64,000 nt of DNA, taken from the NCBI GenBank assembly GCA_965217115.1, contig OZ244239.1, forward strand, positions 1-64,000, written 5' to 3'. The DNA comes from Bdellovibrionales bacterium (GTDB lineage: Bacteria; Bdellovibrionota; Bdellovibrionia; Bdellovibrionales; CAYMLA01). The notes beneath the pieces were generated by a model. It had not been told where the DNA came from, did no database searches, and saw only the letters and a program-made list of their open reading frames with translations. This document shows positions 13,123-22,408 of this stretch, in pieces (the first letter of the stretch is position 1; the number at the start of each line of letters is the position of its first letter). The position numbers were made by a program, and so were the translations under genes.

Positions 13123-14730
13123 ATGAGTTTTAAATTATCAGTGTTAATCATGTTCCTGCTAAAGAGTTCATTAACTTGGGCAACGATATTGCCGCCCAAT
13201 GATTTGCACTTGCAAGATAATCTATTCACAGAAGATTCAAATATAACGGAGGAGATGTTCAATCAGATTATTGCCCAAGCTGAGGATATCTATGCTCCGA
13301 TCATTGAGAGCCACGGCGTGGCTTTAAAAATCAACCGTCTTTGGGAGAATTCAACAGTTAATGCCAATGCCAGCCAGGGTAATGGCATATGGGTCGTTAA
13401 TATGTACGGTGGTTTTGCTCGACGTCCAGAAGTCACTCCAGATGGTTTTGCTCTGGTTGTTTGTCATGAACTGGGTCATCACTTAGGGGGATATCCATTC
13501 TACAATTCTGCTAATAGTTGGGCTGCCAATGAGGGGCAGGCTGATTACTTTGCCACGCAATCCTGTGCCCATAAGCTTTGGAGCGGTGAGGAAGATAAAA
13601 ACCGTCTCTCCCGTGAAACGGTTGACCCAGCAGCCAAAGAGGGTTGTGACTCTGCTTGGAGCACTGAAAAAGCTCAGAACCTCTGTTATCGAACGGCGAT
13701 GGGTGGTCACTCGTTAGCGACTTTGTTAGGTGCTTTAAGAAATACAACGGTGAATTTTGCCACTCCCAATGAAACGGAAGTTCTCAAGACAAGTGATTCA
13801 CATCCTCAAGCACAATGTCGCTTGGATACCTATTTCCATGGAGCACTTTGTAGTGTTGACTTTGATTCAAATATTATCCCAGGTCGTAGACATAGTGATG
13901 GTCAACGATCAGAAGCGGCCGAAGGAGTTGCTGTTGAGAATTCCTGTGCAAGGGAGGTGTTTTTTCCTGTAGGGAACCGTCCTCTGTGTTGGTATAAACC
14001 TTTACGTACAGTTCAGATGAATTTAACGGATGCTATCTGGGAGCAAATATCTGGTAATGGTGATGGTGTGCTTCAACCTGGTGAGACGTTTGGTGTGAAA
14101 TCCTCACTGGTTAATGGAACGCTACGGTCATTTGAAGATACTAAAGTTCAGCTGAAAACAGGAAATGATTCTGTGATCATTGAAAAAAGAACCGTTCAGT
14201 TTCCCAATTCCCTTCCTGGCACGACAGTGGAGCAAGAGGAACCTTTTGTGATTAAAATAAGAGAGAACGCTGCTTGTGGACAATTTATTGATCTGGACTT
14301 GAGTATGATTGTCTCAGGAGCCGTCGCTCGTAAACAGAGCACACGTAAGAGATTAGGCCAAGTTGTAGGATCTGTTCCCTATAAAGAAGTAACAAGTGTT
14401 TCCATTCCTGATAACGATTCAACTGGGATTTCACAGCTGATTTCTGTTGCTGGGTTGACAGGGGTTGGCTCTGTTAAATTTAAGGCGAATATAACTCACC
14501 CCTACTCTGGTGACTTAATCGTTCGGTTGATTTCTCCAGCTGGAAGAGAAATGTTTCTTCGTGAGAAGCAGGGTGGAAGTGAGGACAATGTTATTCTAGA
14601 CGAAGAGTTGGCCATAGATGCTGGGGATATCCAAGGGGATTGGACATTAAAAATAACAGATGCTGGCCCTCGTGATATCGGAACTCTCGATAGCTGGTCT
14701 CTTGAGTTCACCAAAGTTAGCTGCGAATAA
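13123..14730 (+). CDS. Secreted M48-like metalloprotease with Ig-like region and C-terminal proprotein-convertase P-domain (paralog 3, full length)
   Basis: HELGH and EGQADY; GNGDGVLQPGE; SIPDND..ITHPYSGDL..L.SPAG..GDWTLKITD..D.GTLDSWSLEF is the P-domain pattern. Confidence 0.85.
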   Translation: MSFKLSVLIMFLLKSSLTWATILPPNDLHLQDNLFTEDSNITEEMFNQIIAQAEDIYAPIIESHGVALKINRLWENSTVNANASQGNGIWVVNMYGGFARRPEVTPDGFALVVCHELGHHLGGYPFYNSANSWAANEGQADYFATQSCAHKLWSGEEDKNRLSRETVDPAAKEGCDSAWSTEKAQNLCYRTAMGGHSLATLLGALRNTTVNFATPNETEVLKTSDSHPQAQCRLDTYFHGALCSVDFDSNIIPGRRHSDGQRSEAAEGVAVENSCAREVFFPVGNRPLCWYKPLRTVQMNLTDAIWEQISGNGDGVLQPGETFGVKSSLVNGTLRSFEDTKVQLKTGNDSVIIEKRTVQFPNSLPGTTVEQEEPFVIKIRENAACGQFIDLDLSMIVSGAVARKQSTRKRLGQVVGSVPYKEVTSVSIPDNDSTGISQLISVAGLTGVGSVKFKANITHPYSGDLIVRLISPAGREMFLREKQGGSEDNVILDEELAIDAGDIQGDWTLKITDAGPRDIGTLDSWSLEFTKVSCE

Positions 14731-14770
14731 AAACAGCTCCATAGTATAGAGAGAAATATTTTACTATTAA

Positions 14771-14817
14771 TAAGAAGAGAGGGGAGAGAGTTCCCCTTTT
14801 TTTTATTTTAATGACTG
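14771..14817 (+). terminator. Rho-independent terminator; 47-bp direct repeat, copy 1
   Basis: AGGGGA-gagagt-TCCCCT followed by a T-tract; 46/47 identical to 17235-17281. Confidence 0.8.
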
Positions 14818-14870
14818 AGCTGCTGGGGCTGGAATCGCCTATAATCGCTCAGGAATTCAAAACGAATCGA

Positions 14871-15011
14871 ATAAATAAACCATTGAGCTTAATCTTGACA
14901 TTGTTTCGCCCTTATCTTAATTATGACTACAAAGATTAAACTTATGTGATGGGAGAAAGAATCATGAGGATATTGCCTACTTTTCTATTAATCTTGTTAT
15001 TTTCTATAAAT
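14871..15011 (+). repeat. 141-bp perfect direct repeat, copy 1 (upstream region and first codons of the gene at 16800)
   Basis: Identical to 16707-16847; contains TTGACA (14895-14900), RBS and MRILPTFLLILLFSIN. Confidence 0.9.
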
Positions 15012-15035
15012 AATTGATAATTTATATGCTTTCAT
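15008..15035 (-). pseudogene. 5' fragment (MKAYKLSII) of a sister repeat-protein gene
   Basis: Identical to the start of 15196-16293, with a similar RBS region; cut at the 141-bp repeat. Confidence 0.75.
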
Positions 15036-15074
15036 AGATTTTCCTTTGTTTTGACTTCTCCACTTAGTATAAGC

Positions 15075-15090
15075 AGCAAATACCATGCCT
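15075..15090 (-). promoter_or_regulatory. Putative sigma54 promoter of the truncated sister gene
   Basis: Minus strand AGGCATGGTATTTGCT (GG-N10-GC); IHF-like ACTCAATAATTTC upstream. Confidence 0.55.
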
Positions 15091-15195
15091 AAAACAAAGA
15101 TCTAGTCTATTGAAATTATTGAGTTTTTATGAATATAGTAACACTATTTATTTACAGTGCGACAAAAAATGGCAAAAAAAGCCTATAGTTTTATT

Positions 15196-16293
15196 TTATT
15201 TGCTATTAGATATTAAAAATTGTTTCTGATATAATTTTAACGCTTTTGCCCAAGTACCATTTTCAATACTGGCTCGTATAAGTTCTACAGTTGGCTCTTG
15301 ATTATTGGAAACTATTCTTAGTAAAGGATGATCTTTCCAGTGAGGTTGAGATAATACATGTTTAGTAATATGGAGTAAATACTCTTTTGGCATTTTATTC
15401 ATAAGTTTTTCTACTAATTCAGGATGATCTTTCCAGTGAGGTTGAGATAATGTATATTCAGCAATAGACCATAAATATTCACTTGGCATTTTATTTATAA
15501 GTTTTTCTACTAATTTAGAATGATCTTTCCAATGAGGTTGAGATAATACCTCTTCAGCAATAATCCATAATTCTTTATCTAGCATTTTATTTATAAGTTT
15601 TTCCACCCACTCAGGATGATCTTTCCAATGAGCTTGAGATAATACATATGAAGCAAAACTCCATAAATGCCCACTCGGCATTTTCTTCATAAGTTTTTCT
15701 ACTAATTCAGGACGATCTTTCCAGAGAGGTCGAGATAATACATATTGAGCGATAGGCCATAAATATTTACTTGGCATTTTCTTCATAAGTTTTTCTACTA
15801 ATTCAGGATGATCTTTCCAGTGAGATTGAGATAATACATCTTCAGCAATAAAGTGTAAATCTACCCCCGGCATTTTATTTATAAGTTTTTCTACTAATTT
15901 AGGATGATCTTTCCAGTGAGGTTGGGATAATACATCTGTGGCAATAGAGTGTAAAGATTTTCTTGGCATTTTCTTCATAAGTTTTTCTACTAATTCAGGA
16001 TGATCTTTCCAGTGAGGTTGAGATAATACATTTACAGCAATACTCCATAAATCTTTATCTAGCATTTTATTCATAAGTTTTTCTACTAATTCAGGATAAT
16101 CTTTCCAACGAGGTTGAGATAATATATCTTCAGCAATTTTCCGTAAATGTTTACTTGGCGTTTCATTTATAAGTTTTTCTACTGATTCAGAGTTTTTTAT
16201 TTGATCAATATTTTCTGTATCAGCATAAGCAAAAGTTACTTTTATCAAAGAGATAGTTATAAAAAAAATAATTGATAATTTATATGCTTTCAT
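15196..16293 (-). CDS. Secreted 32-aa tandem-repeat (alpha-solenoid) protein
   Basis: Sec signal ending AYA; 8 full and 2 partial 96-bp units, consensus SQPHWKDHPELVEKLMxKMPxxxLxxIAxxVL; distinct C-cap. Confidence 0.9.
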   Translation of the reverse strand: MKAYKLSIIFFITISLIKVTFAYADTENIDQIKNSESVEKLINETPSKHLRKIAEDILSQPRWKDYPELVEKLMNKMLDKDLWSIAVNVLSQPHWKDHPELVEKLMKKMPRKSLHSIATDVLSQPHWKDHPKLVEKLINKMPGVDLHFIAEDVLSQSHWKDHPELVEKLMKKMPSKYLWPIAQYVLSRPLWKDRPELVEKLMKKMPSGHLWSFASYVLSQAHWKDHPEWVEKLINKMLDKELWIIAEEVLSQPHWKDHSKLVEKLINKMPSEYLWSIAEYTLSQPHWKDHPELVEKLMNKMPKEYLLHITKHVLSQPHWKDHPLLRIVSNNQEPTVELIRASIENGTWAKALKLYQKQFLISNSK

Positions 16294-16527
16294 AGATTTT
16301 TCCTTATTTTGATCTTGTTAATTAATATTAGCGATTGGTACCACACCCAATTAGTAGCGTCAAAAGAAAGCTTTACACTTATTATTTAAAGAAATTTTTA
16401 CATTTTACACAACTCCATGCTTAAAACAAAGATTTAGTTTATTGAAATTATTGAGTTTTTATAAATACAATAACACTATTTAGTTATGGCGTGCAAAAAA
16501 ATGGCAGAAAAAGCCTATAGTTTTATT

Positions 16528-16713
16528 TTATTTGCTATTAGATATTAAAAATTGTTTTTGATATATTTTTAACTCTTTTTTCCAAGTACCATTTTCAATA
16601 CTGGCTCGTATAAGTTCTACAGTCGGCTCTTGATTATTGGAAACTATTCTTAGTAAAGGATGATCTTTCCAGTGAGGTTGAGATAATACATGTTTAGTAA
16701 TACTCCATAAATA
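16528..16713 (-). pseudogene. 3' fragment of another repeat-protein paralog (last repeat and C-cap)
   Basis: YLWSITKHVLSQPHWKDHPLLRIVSNNQEP...ISNSK, near-identical to the C-terminus of 15196-16293; the 5' side is replaced by the 141-bp repeat. Confidence 0.85.
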
Positions 16714-16847
16714 AACCATTGAGCTTAATCTTGACATTGTTTCGCCCTTATCTTAATTATGACTACAAAGATTAAACTTATGTGATGGGAGAAAGAATCA
16801 TGAGGATATTGCCTACTTTTCTATTAATCTTGTTATTTTCTATAAAT
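16707..16847 (+). repeat. 141-bp perfect direct repeat, copy 2
   Basis: Identical to 14871-15011; TTGACA at 16731-16736. Confidence 0.9.
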
Positions 16848-17207
16848 TCTTATGCTTTTCAATGTCCAACAGTAGAGCTGGTTGGCAGTTTTAAAACTGT
16901 AGAAGTTCAAGGTTGTGAAGGCTATGAAGACTGGATGCATGTCTCTGCTGTAGAAAATGAAATTCAAGGAAGTACGTTAATCACAGGGTTTGTTTTTAAT
17001 AATAGTGATGAGCCATCTCAAAAACATTGGATAAAAGAAACAATGGATAATTCCCAGCTTCGTTGTGTTAATACTAAAACAACGAAGCTCTGGAGATGGT
17101 TTCCTTCAAGTCCAAGAAGTAATTTCTATTGGGGATTTGCCTACAGAGCAGGGACATATTATGCGGAGCGAGGGCATAACTGCAGATACAAACTGCAGAA
17201 GCTATAA
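16800..17207 (+). CDS. Small secreted hypothetical protein with 4 Cys
   Basis: GGAG RBS, signal peptide MRILPTFLLILLFSINSYA, terminator downstream. Confidence 0.75.
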   Translation: MRILPTFLLILLFSINSYAFQCPTVELVGSFKTVEVQGCEGYEDWMHVSAVENEIQGSTLITGFVFNNSDEPSQKHWIKETMDNSQLRCVNTKTTKLWRWFPSSPRSNFYWGFAYRAGTYYAERGHNCRYKLQKL

Positions 17208-17234
17208 TTTAAAACACTAGGTTCTGAGACAAAT

Positions 17235-17281
17235 TAAGAAGAGAGGGGAGAGAGCTCCCCTTTTTTTTATTTTAATGACTG
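17235..17281 (+). terminator. Rho-independent terminator; 47-bp direct repeat, copy 2
   Basis: AGGGGAG-agag-CTCCCCT followed by a T-tract; matches 14771-14817. Confidence 0.8.
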
Positions 17282-17543: not shown

Positions 17544-18398
17544 ATGTTATTAAAAAATGGTATTCTAGGATTAGTTTTGGGCTCCCTTCTGCTCTCACTT
17601 GCAGGTAGCTGCTGGGCATCGATAGAAGCATCACCTCAAAATACATTTTCTGCACAGGAAAATAATGGAGCCCGTGTATATTCATTGGCTTACACGACAG
17701 TCCTCTCAACGAACTCATATTTTCTTGGTCGTTCAGAGCATCAGTCCAGTCAAACCCATTCATTGAGGGGGGTTATTTATCTTCCCAAGGCTTTTACTCT
17801 ATCAACGTCATTGGGGGTAAATCAGGATTTTGGCAATGAGAAAAAACTATTGTTCAGAGATGGGGCTTTAACATTGGCCAGCCCCATAGTAGGTCTCTCT
17901 AGAAATATAAAGACGACTGGCAGGGCGACTGTCATTTTACCATTGAGTGAGTATTCATCCAAAACTGCAGGATTGATGACTGCCATTAGTCTCACTCCAG
18001 TGGTTTCTATTAATGCAGATAAAATCGCTCCTGATTTAACCTTTTTTTATAGTCCGACATTTATATATAGACTTTATAGGTATGAAACATCTTTAGATGG
18101 TTCATCTAATAATGAGTACGGATTGAGTCAAAACCTAGGAATTGCTTACTCGATTCTAGACAATCTTCGTTTAAGTTTAAATCAATCCTACACTCGATCT
18201 TGGACACATAGTGGAAGCACGAATGATTTTTTTAGTCTGGGGCAGTCTCTGAGTGCGGTCTTTTTTAAAAGCTTGAGCTTATTTGTTGGCCATTCAATAG
18301 GTCAGAGTGCTCTTGCAGCAAATGGAGAGGAATTTAATACTAAAATATTTGATATAAAAAAATCAAATTATTATGCAGGAATGTCTTACCAGTTTTAA
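17544..18398 (+). CDS. Putative outer-membrane beta-barrel protein
   Basis: Signal peptide, amphipathic beta-strand pattern, C-terminal YYAGMSYQF beta-signal. Confidence 0.7.
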   Translation: MLLKNGILGLVLGSLLLSLAGSCWASIEASPQNTFSAQENNGARVYSLAYTTVLSTNSYFLGRSEHQSSQTHSLRGVIYLPKAFTLSTSLGVNQDFGNEKKLLFRDGALTLASPIVGLSRNIKTTGRATVILPLSEYSSKTAGLMTAISLTPVVSINADKIAPDLTFFYSPTFIYRLYRYETSLDGSSNNEYGLSQNLGIAYSILDNLRLSLNQSYTRSWTHSGSTNDFFSLGQSLSAVFFKSLSLFVGHSIGQSALAANGEEFNTKIFDIKKSNYYAGMSYQF

Positions 18399-18439: not shown

Positions 18440-21400
18440 ATGAAAAACAAAGAAACAAATAGAAGAGCACAAAGAATCTTGTCTATGTCATGGCTGTTTC
18501 TTTTTCTAGTCTCTTGTGCTGAAAAAAGACCTGTTCAAATTGCTCAAACCTCCGCCCATAACCTCTTGGAGATAAGTGATTTTCAAGGTAAAGAATATGA
18601 GTTGCAAACAAAAGGGTCTGTTCATTCTGGTTCTTCGTTCACGAATGCAAAAAAAGTCACAGTGAGTAAAGCAGCCAAAGGGGTTAATAATTTTGGTCTC
18701 GTAGGCTACGAAACGACATCGCCACATCTTGAAGGTGTTTCTTTTTTTGGAAAAACAGAGACGACGTATAAATTAAAATATGAAGTTACTAGCGATTATC
18801 TGGTTGTCTCAAAGATCTCTAAAAAAGAGGATTTACCTTTCCAGGAGCTGACTTATGCCACTTCTATCGGAGAGGACACCTATAAAGTTCCCATGGTAGG
18901 TTATCCAGTGACTCTTTACAAGCTCGTCAGACGGCGTAATCATAATAATGAATTAACCCATAACCTAGATAAAGTAAGGGTTTATAGTCTTAAGGAAGCA
19001 ACCCATCTTGATATCAATTTTAGAGGAAGACGGGAATTTAATGCGATTTCAAAGAACAATGTTTTCAAGGCGAACTTTTTTGAAGGAGAATGGTTCTACG
19101 CTGCGACGGTTGTGTCAGCATCACCTGATCAGGCGAACTCTATAGGTAGAGATCTCAGTATGGATTTTAAGGCAAGGTCGGTTTCCCGTATTCGATTTGT
19201 TAAGAGATTTAATAATCTTACCAGCTTAAACCTCAATGTCGATGACAACCTAGACGTGAGCGACGATATTAATTTGGAGGACACGGTTGATATTCCTTCG
19301 GTGTACTTTGATTATAGACAAGATAAAATCGGAGAGAGTCCTCTTTTGAAAGAAATCGCTATTGGAAACGATCATAAAGAGCGTCGCCTATTTGACAAGA
19401 GAGATTATATAAAACTTAATTTTGCGAGTGTGAACTCTGCATTAACAAGGCGTGGTCACCTAAATAAGGTTGGAGCTATTTTAGATAGTTTAGAAATAGA
19501 TGGGAATTATTTTAGTTTTGTAGTTTATTACCCTTCAGATGAAGTGAAAATCCGTTATGCTTTTAGGAAAGCCCATAAGCCTAGAGAAGGGCGCATTTAT
19601 TTTAAACCTGACAGGAAGATATTTGGATTTTTCTCTGCGAGAAGAGATGCAGTTCTAAACCATAGGTATGAGAGAGAGGACGCACAGGATAAGTTAAATA
19701 TGCTGAATCGATTCTATCCAAAAGATGGTAAAATCGTTTATTATTTTTCTAAGCAAACCCCAGAGCATATGAAGGAAGTTGCAAGAGAATCTATTAGGGT
19801 TTGGGATGAAGCTTTTCAAAAGGCTGGCACGGGAATAAGAATTGTTTTGAATGAGAGCAGAGCTATTGATTTAGGTGATATTCGTCACAATATAATTAAT
19901 ATCATTGACACAAAAAATGGAGGCAATCTCTTAGGGTATGGCCCAAGTGTTGTTGATTCATTGTCTGGAGAAATTATTTCGGCATCAGCGAATATTTATG
20001 TGGACCCCTTTAGAGAAATCTGGATAGCCCACCTTCGAAATTATATTAGAAGTGAGCTGAAGATGTTCGATAGAGCAAGTCTTGGTGTGCCTGTTCTTGG
20101 AAAAATGGAAGGTGATCAAGGTGGAACGGATCAATTTGTTAACAGCATGCTCCTGAGCTCTTTGCAGAGTGGTGATAGGCATGGAGATCAGCATGGAGAT
20201 CAGCATCTGGATTTAACTGCAGAGAAGATTGGTAAAATTAAAGCCCTTGTAGATAAGGAGATGGGTACTGCCAAAAAAATGCCATCTCTAGAGGGCATGT
20301 TCCATAACAGTCCATTTAATAGCTCCCATAAGGATGTTGTTGAACAGATTAAGTCAAAATGTGGTGCCAGCATTGACTCTTATATCCAAGAGCTAAAGAG
20401 ATTAAAGGTAACCCATACGGGGAAGGAGTTGAAGGTCCTTGGCAGTTGTACAGATATTCTACTCCATGATTCTATTGTATCGACGATTATCCATGAACTG
20501 GGACATAACTTTGGGCTTCGACATAATTTTAAAGCATCGGTGGATGCGGAAAATTTTCTTGTCGATTCTCAAGGAAAAGTCACATTGGAAACATCCTCTG
20601 TTATGGATTATTCTTCGACGGTTAGTGGATTAACTAAACCTGGGGCTTATGATATTGCGGCAATTCGCTTTGGCTATGGAAACAGTGTGCTCCTTAAAAA
20701 TGGGAGTACTGAGCCTATCAGTATAAAAGAAAGCTTGAAAAAACAAATTGCTGAGAAATCTCTCGACGTTGTTAAATACAAATTCTGCACTGACGAGGAC
20801 GTCCAAGTCGTGGACCCTCTATGTCAGAGGCATGATGCTGGTGTAAACCCAAAAGAGATCGTAGAAGATATTATCAGGGATTTTTATTCTAGCTATGTAG
20901 TGCATGGAAATCGTTACGATCGGGCTAAGGGCCTGCAGTCTGGGAGATTTTCGCTTATTCATTTGCAGAGGACACTTCTTCCTTTGAAGAATATATATGA
21001 TCAATGGCGTTTTTATCTTAGAGAATTTGTTGGGGCAAGAGAGCAGTACTTGGAAAATTTTTCGCCTGAAGAGTTTAAGGCAGTACTGGATAAAATGAAA
21101 AACTCTCCAGGTCGTTACGGGAAATTCTATAGCGATTATTACGAGGCGAGTGAGCTAATTTACGATTTCTTTAAGAAGATTATTTTTAGTCCATCTAAAC
21201 TATGTGTCGGTACTATGTCTAGTAGTTCTAAGAAAGACGTGAGGTTTATTAGTTTTAAAGAGGTTAAAGAGGCGGTTTTTAAAGCCAAGGGTGTCACGAT
21301 TGATTCTTGCTCCCATGCTGCTGCGATTGATATCTTTAAATCTAAAGGGCTTAGTCATAGAGGAGAGTTTGGCTTCTTCCATGGAGATCAAAGAAAAACT

Positions 21401-22408
21401 TTAGATATTTCAGATGAAGATTATGATGTTGTTGACACCGTTGGTTTTGAAGATCTAAGATACCTCGCCTTCATAGTTCTGGCTCAACGGGAATCTATGA
21501 TGGGGCATTTAAGAGTTAATCAATTCAATCCAAATTTGCTAGACAACCCCTTTCATCGTGAGGAAATTGTGAAAATGGCGTTGGAAAGGGTTTTAGATGG
21601 CATTGATGGAAAAGATTTCGGTTTTGAAGGAAGCAAGTGGAGTGGATTGGTTTTCTCTAAGGAGAAGGTTCTTCTCAAAGACATGTTTCTAACTATTGTC
21701 AGAGGGCTTGGAGTTCCTGGTAATTTTGAAGAGTCTAATAGAAGGGCACTCCTATTTACTCCTAATGTGACAGCTGATCCAAGGGAAGTTCCTAAGGGTG
21801 CTCTTGTTATAAAGTATAGACATGTGTACATCTTCACAACAGCTGCTTCCGGGACACCAGTTCGGATCTTTATTAAAAAAAGAGAAGAGCTCGTAGCTTC
21901 TTTAGCTGGTATTGACGCTAGTATTCCTGAGTTATCGGAGCAGGCTGGTTCTAAAACCTACAAAGCCCTTCAAGATGCGGGGCAACTCAAGACAGCGATA
22001 GAGTTGAGGGAAAAATTTCTTGTTAAAGATGTGATTAGTTATGTAGCATCTTTAGGAGAATTTATTCAAACGGCCTCTCAAGAACAAGCTGAAGTAGTGA
22101 CTGTTGTGAGGACCCATTTCTCTGTAATGTTTGAGTTGTTTGGAAGAGTACCAGAAGGTTTTGATCAAAGCCCGGAAGGGAAGGTTATTCTCAATAAATC
22201 TTTAAAAACTTTTTTAAGTGAAATTGATAGAGGGATTTCTTTCGAACAATTTGTAGAACTCTACTCTGAAGAGTCCCTTAAAGAGGCCATTAAAAGAATA
22301 ATTCAAGCTATCAGTGTGGAGAGGAATAAAAGATCTGAACTGGGCCCTTATATGGAAGAGCTTGAAGCGCAGCGAGATATTATCACGGAAATATTGATCG
22401 GGCTATAA
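18440..22408 (+). CDS. Large zinc-dependent metalloprotease lipoprotein (metzincin)
   Basis: Lipobox LVSC; HELGHNFGLRHNF (HExxHxxGxxH); Met-turn SSVMDY; GAYDIAAIRFGY. Confidence 0.88.
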   Translation: MKNKETNRRAQRILSMSWLFLFLVSCAEKRPVQIAQTSAHNLLEISDFQGKEYELQTKGSVHSGSSFTNAKKVTVSKAAKGVNNFGLVGYETTSPHLEGVSFFGKTETTYKLKYEVTSDYLVVSKISKKEDLPFQELTYATSIGEDTYKVPMVGYPVTLYKLVRRRNHNNELTHNLDKVRVYSLKEATHLDINFRGRREFNAISKNNVFKANFFEGEWFYAATVVSASPDQANSIGRDLSMDFKARSVSRIRFVKRFNNLTSLNLNVDDNLDVSDDINLEDTVDIPSVYFDYRQDKIGESPLLKEIAIGNDHKERRLFDKRDYIKLNFASVNSALTRRGHLNKVGAILDSLEIDGNYFSFVVYYPSDEVKIRYAFRKAHKPREGRIYFKPDRKIFGFFSARRDAVLNHRYEREDAQDKLNMLNRFYPKDGKIVYYFSKQTPEHMKEVARESIRVWDEAFQKAGTGIRIVLNESRAIDLGDIRHNIINIIDTKNGGNLLGYGPSVVDSLSGEIISASANIYVDPFREIWIAHLRNYIRSELKMFDRASLGVPVLGKMEGDQGGTDQFVNSMLLSSLQSGDRHGDQHGDQHLDLTAEKIGKIKALVDKEMGTAKKMPSLEGMFHNSPFNSSHKDVVEQIKSKCGASIDSYIQELKRLKVTHTGKELKVLGSCTDILLHDSIVSTIIHELGHNFGLRHNFKASVDAENFLVDSQGKVTLETSSVMDYSSTVSGLTKPGAYDIAAIRFGYGNSVLLKNGSTEPISIKESLKKQIAEKSLDVVKYKFCTDEDVQVVDPLCQRHDAGVNPKEIVEDIIRDFYSSYVVHGNRYDRAKGLQSGRFSLIHLQRTLLPLKNIYDQWRFYLREFVGAREQYLENFSPEEFKAVLDKMKNSPGRYGKFYSDYYEASELIYDFFKKIIFSPSKLCVGTMSSSSKKDVRFISFKEVKEAVFKAKGVTIDSCSHAAAIDIFKSKGLSHRGEFGFFHGDQRKTLDISDEDYDVVDTVGFEDLRYLAFIVLAQRESMMGHLRVNQFNPNLLDNPFHREEIVKMALERVLDGIDGKDFGFEGSKWSGLVFSKEKVLLKDMFLTIVRGLGVPGNFEESNRRALLFTPNVTADPREVPKGALVIKYRHVYIFTTAASGTPVRIFIKKREELVASLAGIDASIPELSEQAGSKTYKALQDAGQLKTAIELREKFLVKDVISYVASLGEFIQTASQEQAEVVTVVRTHFSVMFELFGRVPEGFDQSPEGKVILNKSLKTFLSEIDRGISFEQFVELYSEESLKEAIKRIIQAISVERNKRSELGPYMEELEAQRDIITEILIGL

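Follow-up and report, generated by a model that had tools for sequence, protein, structure and literature searches.

What is encoded by a gene that consists almost entirely of 96-bp units, and what might its product do? The question is raised by the open reading frame (ORF) at 15196..16293, on the minus strand of a 64,000-nt stretch of DNA, here called the window, from a Bdellovibrionales bacterium (assembly GCA_965217115.1, contig OZ244239.1). The genome is a single 2.17-Mb contig, of which the window is the first 64 kb. An earlier reading of the letters, the original prediction, described the product (the window protein, P0001) as secreted and as built on an alpha-solenoid repeat outside the known classes, with a fixed scaffold and a hypervariable helix face. 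From the alignments described below we conclude that the repeat is a divergent one of the HEAT_2 type, a subfamily overlooked by existing models. Between units, the predicted solvent side of a single helix varies, whereas the corresponding side of the second helix is frozen. The reading towards which we lean, with some reserve, is that of a Sec-exported, free-standing, ligand-binding alpha-solenoid.

The gene comprises 365 codons and a stop, and an open frame of this length in DNA of about 31% GC is not a chance ORF. All of its parts lie on the minus strand. A ribosome-binding site (RBS), AAGGA, was read from the sequence at 16301..16305, 7 nt 5′ of the ATG. A putative signal peptide, recognized by eye (aa 1-24, 16222..16293), consists of MKAYK, a hydrophobic core and AYA followed by D; residues 1-26 have a predicted local distance difference test score (pLDDT) <50 in the model discussed below. 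We infer that the window protein is Sec-exported. There follow an N-terminal linker and half-unit N-cap (aa 25-58, 16120..16221; SESVEKLINETPSKHLRKIAEDIL, helix B plus helix A), the half-unit proper being aa 35-58, and eight full units of 96 bp, or 32 aa (aa 59-314, 15352..16119), in which unit k (0-7) runs from 16024-96k to 16119-96k. The protein ends with a ninth SQPHWKDHP turn and a 42-aa C-cap (LLRIVSNNQEPTVELIRASIENGTW...; aa 315-365, 15196..15351), whose motif HP.LR....P T...L is common to the window protein and its relatives. Tandem Repeats Finder reported 15325-16190 with a period of 96, 9.0 copies, 81% matches and 0% indels; a super-period of 288 bp, with 82% matches, scored no better and was rejected. 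The arrangement described in the original prediction (signal peptide, N-cap, eight full 96-bp units, C-cap) is the one found. When the protein was split again into units in the same register, with S as position 1, the residues that had been listed at positions 21-23, 25-26 and 29-30 were recovered exactly.

To which class does this repeat belong? No family claimed the window protein in searches of Pfam, NCBIfam and PDB sequences. In NCBIfam nothing came near any cut-off. The models PYRIN (36 bits), MIP-T3 and DNApol3-delta_C exceeded whole-protein cut-offs with 0 significant stretches, as sums over the repeats, and were discarded. The best PDB sequence match was a DARPin (E 0.34), and the ESM Atlas gave no usable match. 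Pfam HEAT_2 (PF13646) and HEAT_PBS (PF03130) left the window protein unmatched at E up to 1; they were also unlisted for the true family members that were scanned, and matched only the NACHT proteins P0089, P0090 and P0106. P0089 has a true HEAT_2 array with a W-x-D-x-P-[ED] turn (423 bits on HEAT_2). P0156, a Streptomyces anulatus plasmid protein (WP_228183854.1, 'HEAT repeat domain-containing protein'), scores 230 bits on the same model. Both display the HEAT hallmark, D-x-x-V-R-x-x-A on helix A. BLASTP aligned the window protein with P0156 in register over eight units, with a pairwise E of 3e-12 that is inflated by repetition. In this alignment L24-W25 fall on the HEAT V-R, A28 on the conserved Ala, and W5-K-D-H-P-E on W-H-D-R-P-E. 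With hhalign, comparison with the pooled units of P0089 and P0156 gave a probability of 80% when the family was the query and of 85% for the units of the window protein, values inflated by repetition and by tandem doubling. The in-register alignment with bona fide HEAT_2 arrays points to a divergent HEAT-like subfamily rather than a new class. That no Pfam, NCBIfam or PDB family captures the sequence agrees with the original prediction; the placement outside all known classes gives way to the HEAT_2 relationship.

AlphaFold2 (AF2) modelled the window protein as an alpha-solenoid, as had been predicted, with a mean pLDDT of 78.4, about 85 in the repeats, and a predicted template-modelling score (pTM) of 0.60. 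Each modelled unit contains a helix A of 13 residues (21-33), a helix of five residues at PHWKD (3-7) and a helix B, PELVEKLMKK, of 10 residues (9-18). On a helical wheel L24, I27, A28, V31 and L32 would lie on one side of helix A and all seven variable positions on the opposite side, in agreement, at this level, with the single variable face that was first proposed. Structure searches with Foldseek and with VIA-align 2, an in-house structural aligner, yielded generic solenoid matches from which no family stands clear. Foldseek gave template-modelling (TM) scores of 0.2-0.4 to designed repeat, armadillo, PUF and DARPin chains, and VIA-align 2 gave Z of about 12 to HEAT, PUF and TOG proteins among 48,161 representatives; by the guidance of the aligner such scores are generic for helical repeats. 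The best local superposition was with TOG domains (Z 10.9, root-mean-square deviation (rmsd) 3.7 Å, 168 residues).

Positions 21-23, 25-26 and 29-30 hold nearly all of the variation between the units of the window array. Entropy among the eight units is 1.30-2.41 bits at these seven positions and at most 1.06 bits at all others. The enrichment in W, Y and H that had been remarked upon amounts to 16 of the 56 residues. The framework is near-invariant at the nucleotide level as well, many of its codons being the same in 8/8 units, for example those of W5, K6 and D7, of E13, K14 and L15, of K18 and M19, of L24 and of L32. The exposed positions of helix B (10, 13, 14, 17 and 18) show 2 amino-acid changes, compared with 26 at the variable positions, and the variation is therefore specific to one helix and not a general drift of the surface.

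Counts by the method of Nei and Gojobori gave a proportion of nonsynonymous differences (pN) of 0.51 for the seven variable codons, with a proportion of synonymous differences (pS) of 0.27 from only 3.1 synonymous sites. For the framework codons pN was 0.085 and pS 0.17, and pS over all codons was 0.19. The framework is under purifying selection (pN/pS ~0.5). An excess of nonsynonymous change at the variable codons, the lack of which would have counted against the original prediction, was found both here (pN 0.51 vs the overall pS of 0.19) and in the young arrays described below. The minimum number of amino-acid changes is 26 at the sites named in that prediction and 22 at sites defined from the family, where the synonymous rate would predict 9.1 and 7.8 (Poisson P 4e-6 and 2e-5).

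The family from which those sites were defined is largely one of predatory bacteria known from metagenomes. A HMMER search of 1.84 billion representatives found 201 proteins with E<=1e-3, 118 with E<=1e-10 and 25 with E<=1e-30; this is a family of about 200 clusters at 50% identity, mostly from Bdellovibrio-like metagenome genomes, and even the nearest relative shares only some 50% identity with the window protein. A word-indexed search returned 12 proteins, all 'hypothetical' and, where named, from Bdellovibrionia, Oligoflexia or 'Deltaproteobacteria' metagenomes. Among reference genomes there were 18 loci in seven assemblies, mostly labelled Oligoflexia, Bdellovibrionia, Bacteriovoracaceae or Bdellovibrionales, with as many as six loci in one genome. 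Some genomes carry six or seven matches, and elsewhere this is therefore a multigene family. The usual unit is 30 aa long (108 spacings of 30 vs 53 of 32), with the consensus SxPHWKDHPEWVExLIxKGxxDxxIAxxVL, in which W5, H8 and P9 are the most conserved positions. The 32-aa variant of the window, with its KMPxxxL loop, was not seen among the relatives. A phage search gave no match to the window protein, and a plasmid search gave one weak match, the Streptomyces HEAT_2 protein. In the literature searched, 'HWKDHP' occurs in no paper, and among the listed titles and abstracts of work on secreted HEAT repeats in Bdellovibrio none concerns this family. One preprint mentions giant proteins, from putative predators, with HEAT_2 repeats that are extracellular (bioRxiv 10.1101/2023.11.21.568195).

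The same positions vary in the arrays of these relatives. Units were extracted with hidden Markov models (HMMs) from 11 other arrays, each with at least five clean units, 70 units altogether. Within-array entropy was 2.26 and 2.09 bits at the equivalents of window positions 25 and 26, 1.78 at 29, 1.77 at 22, 1.58 at 30 and 1.43 at 23, and at most 1.31 bits elsewhere. Since the same positions peak in 11 independent arrays, the site set is no accident of the window array. The codon comparison was extended to nine arrays of other genomes, four of which mix units of two adjacent genes. In 9/9 the pN of the variable sites exceeded both that of the framework and that of the exposed helix B positions, and in five it exceeded the overall pS. 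The excess was clear in the four youngest arrays, which had variable-site pN values of 0.46, 0.39, 0.24 and 0.39, compared with pS values of 0.31, 0.16, 0.18 and 0.31. Seven proteins (P0077, P0140, P0089, P0090, P0106, P0076 and P0123), to which we return below, were left out of the family statistics.

Most relatives are proteins of 700-1400 aa in which the array is C-terminal. In 67 of the 155 proteins compared there is an N-domain of about 540 aa with a signal peptide and an invariant GG...D-x-D. No Pfam or NCBIfam model covers this domain, and P0015, one of the proteins that carry it, had no match among PDB sequences at E up to 1. The model of the domain (54-sequence alignment, pLDDT 90.9, pTM 0.87) resembles class II CCA-adding enzymes/tRNA nucleotidyltransferases over about 280 residues (Foldseek E 1e-4, probability 1.00, TM 0.26-0.41). 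In seven proteins (P0022, P0032, P0070, P0091, P0094, P0115 and P0137) a Peptidase_S8 domain stands before the array. Short forms with a signal peptide, like that of the window, are P0010, in which the repeats are followed by true ankyrin repeats, and P0011 (235 aa). By joining different exported catalytic domains the module behaves as a binding or targeting domain, and these architectures suggest that in Bdellovibrio-like predators it aims or holds exported enzymes.

Some further features of the relatives deserve mention. In the N-domain (L006:4381-5940; P0014, P0015 and others) the first ~300 residues have the CCA-like fold and are followed by a beta-rich part (GDGFYT...GARGTG). An exported nucleotidyltransferase resembling CCA-adding enzymes, if the model is right, would be noteworthy in predatory bacteria in its own right. 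At L003:1724-7239 and L006:1466-6876 the long-form genes are paired in tandem and overlap by 4 nt. In most relatives (P0002-P0005, P0008, P0011, P0012, P0015, P0023 and P0036) the C-cap is followed by a C-terminal tail with a single conserved Cys and then ~9-14 mostly amphipathic residues, for example C-x3-L-x2-L. Such a tail could serve in sorting or lipidation; the Cys is absent from the window protein.

How could such a protein work? On the reading that we favor, the invariant W5, L11, V12, L15, M16, M19, L24, I27, A28, V31 and L32 would form the core, to judge from the modelled secondary structure and the hydrophobic pattern, and S1/P3 and D7/P9 would serve as helix caps that shape the turn from A to B. 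The positions that change from unit to unit would be those of helix A that face the solvent, 21-23, 25-26 and 29-30. Stacking of the units would bring these positions into line, so that about 60 residues, many of them W, Y, H, S or charged, would form an unbroken stripe. We propose that this stripe binds a ligand without periodicity, of which a protein or an irregular surface on the envelope is the most likely. In the relatives the C-terminal module would aim or hold the catalytic domain of an exported enzyme; made alone, as in the window, it would act as a free binder, that is, as an adaptor, a blocker or an inhibitor. On this reading the array is young and has been amplified or homogenized by recombination between 96-bp units, with the diversity of helix A among the units preserved. 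Diversification by repeat shuffling, as first suggested, was not supported, and the suggestion of prey, host or phage recognition is a guess, for which the only functional hint is that relatives bear the module at the C-terminus of exported enzymes.

Several points weigh against this reading. The AF2 model was made from a single sequence. Fisher tests of nonsynonymous against synonymous changes were not significant (P 0.06 for the originally named sites and 0.15 for the family-defined sites). The codon ratios are confounded in three ways: the first set of sites was picked after they had been seen, which the family-defined set mitigates; the variable codons hold ~3 synonymous sites; and gene conversion, if it affected only the identical framework, would reduce the pS there and imitate an omega >1. 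In the four oldest of the nine arrays the variable-site pN lies below pS, and the older arrays are equally consistent with unconstrained positions and with selected ones. Lastly, the gene is single-copy, sits in a rearranged AT-rich islet and is found in 0/40 related genomes; it may be a recent, dispensable arrival.

The main rival, to which we give a clearly smaller chance, reverses the roles of the two helices. The SQPHWKDHP turn and the invariant charged face of helix B, recurring every 30-32 residues, would form a ridge for a ligand that is itself periodic, for instance a glycan strand, some other polymer of the envelope or a nucleic acid, and the face of helix A would be unconstrained. 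In that case the module would play the part of an anchor, much as the C-terminal repeats of lytic enzymes do in binding the cell wall. The family-wide conservation of W5, H8 and P9 would be explained in this way, and so would the exposed helix B residues that are invariant even by codon and the position of the module C-terminal to exported hydrolase-type enzymes. TOG domains, which gave the best local superposition (Z 10.9), bind through their intra-HEAT turns. In older arrays the variable-site pN is close to pS, which looks neutral; in young arrays, however, it exceeds pS. The same W-x-D-x-P-[ED] turn is moreover present in unrelated HEAT_2 arrays of cytoplasmic type, those of P0089 and of the Streptomyces plasmid protein, which suggests that the motif serves the structure of the turn and not a particular ligand, and S1 and D7, then P3 and P9, resemble helix caps.

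An alternative that we consider unlikely is suggested by the locus itself. The gene would be a dispensable remnant, a C-terminal module torn from a long-form enzyme gene, brought in on a foreign AT-rich cassette and now decaying, with its variation the functionless product of drift and recombination noise. GC content is 0.27-0.33 over 14700-16800, compared with 0.38-0.47 on both flanks. Searches of 40 genomes of the same family or order gave 0 matches, and 11/400 other genomes of the phylum matched, concentrated in two families. The long-form N-domain was not found in the genome of the window with P0015 as query. Against the same genome the window protein retrieved its own gene and one fragment (16528-16737) only. 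The paralog family for which the original prediction would have searched is not there; the genome holds the gene and two truncated remnants of it.

These remnants belong to a 2.4-kb AT-rich rearranged islet, 14771-17281, with nested duplications around the gene. A 5′-truncated second copy (16528..16737, minus strand) is a 69-aa ORF with the last helix A, the turn and the C-cap; with the 3′ flank included, it matches 15083-15381 at 92% identity over 299 nt. A 3′-truncated third copy (15008..15074, minus strand) retains the RBS and the first nine codons (MKAYKLSII), followed by a stop. The two truncated copies flank the full gene head-to-tail. A 141-bp segment at 14871..15011 (plus strand), with a promoter-like site and the first 22 codons of ORF 16782-17207, is 100% identical to a second copy at 16707..16847 (plus strand) that is continuous with the intact ORF. 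The copies are perfect direct repeats, 1836 bp apart, that bracket the repeat-gene cassette. In the best-covering run, X1, the 141-nt unitig had a depth of 30.6, compared with ~15 for its neighbors, as expected of two real copies. These rearrangements show that the cassette is prone to recombination, and an exchange between the 141-bp repeats could remove it. The islet is bounded by two copies of a 47-bp terminator-like hairpin repeat (14771..14817 and 17235..17281, plus strand, 98% identical), and there is a third near genome position 1,591,603. This repeat, a GC-rich hairpin with a T-run (AGAAGAGAGGGGAGAGAG.TCCCC TTTTTTTT), stands after two unrelated plus-strand genes and looks like a small dispersed terminator-type repeat. 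The sequencing data were four runs of one sample in one study, as contigs; the contigs break inside the repeat array, and they showed one T>C difference at 15292 and no joints.

The truncated copies, the nested duplications and the 141-bp repeats, between which the cassette could be deleted, are in keeping with a remnant. The gene itself is less so: its frame of 365 codons is unbroken within AT-rich DNA and comes with an RBS and a signal peptide of its own, the framework retains a pN/pS of ~0.5 with many invariant codons, and the variation lies on one helix face and is not spread. Stand-alone forms with a signal peptide also occur in other genomes (P0010, P0011).

Less probable again is a more ambitious form of the binding hypothesis, drawn by analogy with PUF and armadillo repeats, in which one helix per unit bears the specificity residues. 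The array would be a natural programmable reader in which each unit, by means of its helix A pairs 25/26 and 29/30, often W, H or Y, recognizes one element of a linear or patterned prey molecule; predators would use it to aim exported enzymes, and the window gene would be a free-standing reader. If this were true, the diversified residues would direct enzymes to chosen prey, including the CCA-adding-enzyme-like nucleotidyltransferase acting on RNA 3′ ends.

The genes on either side of the islet are on the plus strand. The product of 13123-14730 is predicted to be a large exported zincin-like metalloprotease with a proprotein-convertase P-domain (59 bits), and that of 18440-22408 a 1322-aa exported Met-zincin of DUF4953 (61 bits). 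Between them, 16782-17207 would encode a 141-aa exported, Cys-containing protein with no family match, the promoter and first 22 codons of which are those duplicated at 14871-15011, and 17544-18398 a 284-aa exported protein with a weak porin-like match and no family. A periplasmic ankyrin-type protein shields Bdellovibrio from its own cell-wall endopeptidases, and one could imagine the window protein, also a small exported repeat protein and encoded between the two metalloprotease genes, as a self-protection or inhibitor protein for those enzymes, but this is very improbable: the composition of the islet is unlike that of those genes and repeats bound it, so that the adjacency looks accidental, and the relatives fuse the module to enzymes rather than encode it beside them.

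With the exported, ligand-binding solenoid as the preferred reading, what does the locus add? A repeat family of about 200 clusters is now defined, for which there is no Pfam or NCBIfam model. The prey-directed proteins of predators are largely uncharacterized, and the helix A residues provide a concrete handle on what predator enzymes recognize. The array shows, in nature, how one helix face can be diversified on a scaffold that stays fixed, and it does so with a HEAT-like unit that is very short and highly regular. Nothing is overturned; variable binding faces on HEAT-like solenoids are already well known.

Among known systems the nearest are the HEAT_2 or PBS-lyase-type HEAT repeats, with which the window protein shares a unit within ~30-34 aa, the order helix A-turn-helix B and a solenoid fold. 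The two antiparallel helices per ~30-aa unit that characterize HEAT_2 are seen in the AF2 model, which scores Z 9-12 to HEAT and TOG solenoids. There are also differences. The hallmark is replaced by x-x-L-[W/H/L]-x-I-A in the window unit and D-x-x-I-A in its relatives, the Arg being gone, and the turn of the window unit is longer and is modelled with a third short helix. Unlike HEAT_2 proteins, the family is predicted to be exported and is fused to exported nucleotidyltransferase-fold or subtilase domains.

A likeness to ankyrin is confined to helix B and the next turn (HPELVEKLIKKG-AD), which resemble the ankyrin outer helix (HLEIVKLLLEKGAD). Against the PDB a 54-unit family profile found consensus ankyrin designs with a summed E of 1.7e-6 and single stretches of i-Evalue 27-35; the match is limited to the 12 residues HPEwVeaLIkkG, which resemble HLELVKLLLEKG. 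Pfam Ank was found in P0002, P0003, P0007 and P0019 at 23-31 bits, as sums with 0 significant stretches. Ankyrin identity (PF00023, PF12796) was rejected: the unit is 30-32 and not 33 aa long, there is no TPLH, the all-helical model has no beta-hairpin or strand, the family profile reached 5% against ankyrin units in hhalign, and Pfam Ank misses the window protein. The unrelated proteins P0077, P0140, P0089 and P0090 matched the window protein with E of 1e-8 to 1e-16 through an amphipathic helix motif, [LIV]VEK[LI]...K; among these are NACHT-HEAT_2 proteins and ankyrin arrays whose LLEKMSPEAINA loop is unusual. P0077 and P0140, true ankyrin proteins matched through VEKLLEKMSPE, were rejected as relatives, and P0089, P0090 and P0106 (NACHT/HEAT_2 proteins) and P0076 and P0123 (other repeat proteins) were rejected as family members. 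Such cases warn against taking summed scores between repeat proteins at face value, since these exaggerate kinship.

The PUF and armadillo repeats resemble the modelled protein in having three helices per unit and about 8-9 units. PUF-8 had the best global structural score (Z 13.3, 300 residues aligned, rmsd 14 Å), followed by HEAT proteins (Z 12), and designed armadillo proteins and importin-alpha appeared in the Foldseek list (TM 0.2-0.34). The superposition is poor, with an rmsd of 12-16 Å and a TM of 0.2-0.4 that are within the generic range for helical repeats, the unit is 32 aa long instead of 36 or 42, and the order and lengths of the helices differ. The window protein has no Pfam PUF or Arm match, and by inspection its unit is approximately neutral, not basic.

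A parallel in design is alphaRep. As a general rule in HEAT and alphaRep proteins, helix A is not the concave binding helix. By the HEAT_2 alignment the variable helix of the window protein is the first, V-R helix A, and its variable side would be on the outer rather than the concave face. The alphaRep scaffold was built from the HEAT-like repeats of a natural thermostable parent family, and in it the variable positions 18, 19, 22, 23, 26 and 30 lie on the second helix, on the concave face, and constitute the binding surface (PMC3754942). Both are short HEAT-like repeats with a fixed scaffold and a few hypervariable positions on one helix, and in both the pairs are spaced one helical turn apart (18-19, 22-23, 26 and 30 in alphaRep; 22-23, 25-26 and 29-30 in the window unit). 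In contrast to alphaRep, which varies helix B, the window array appears to vary helix A, the helix that the engineered scaffold keeps fixed, and this may interest protein engineers.

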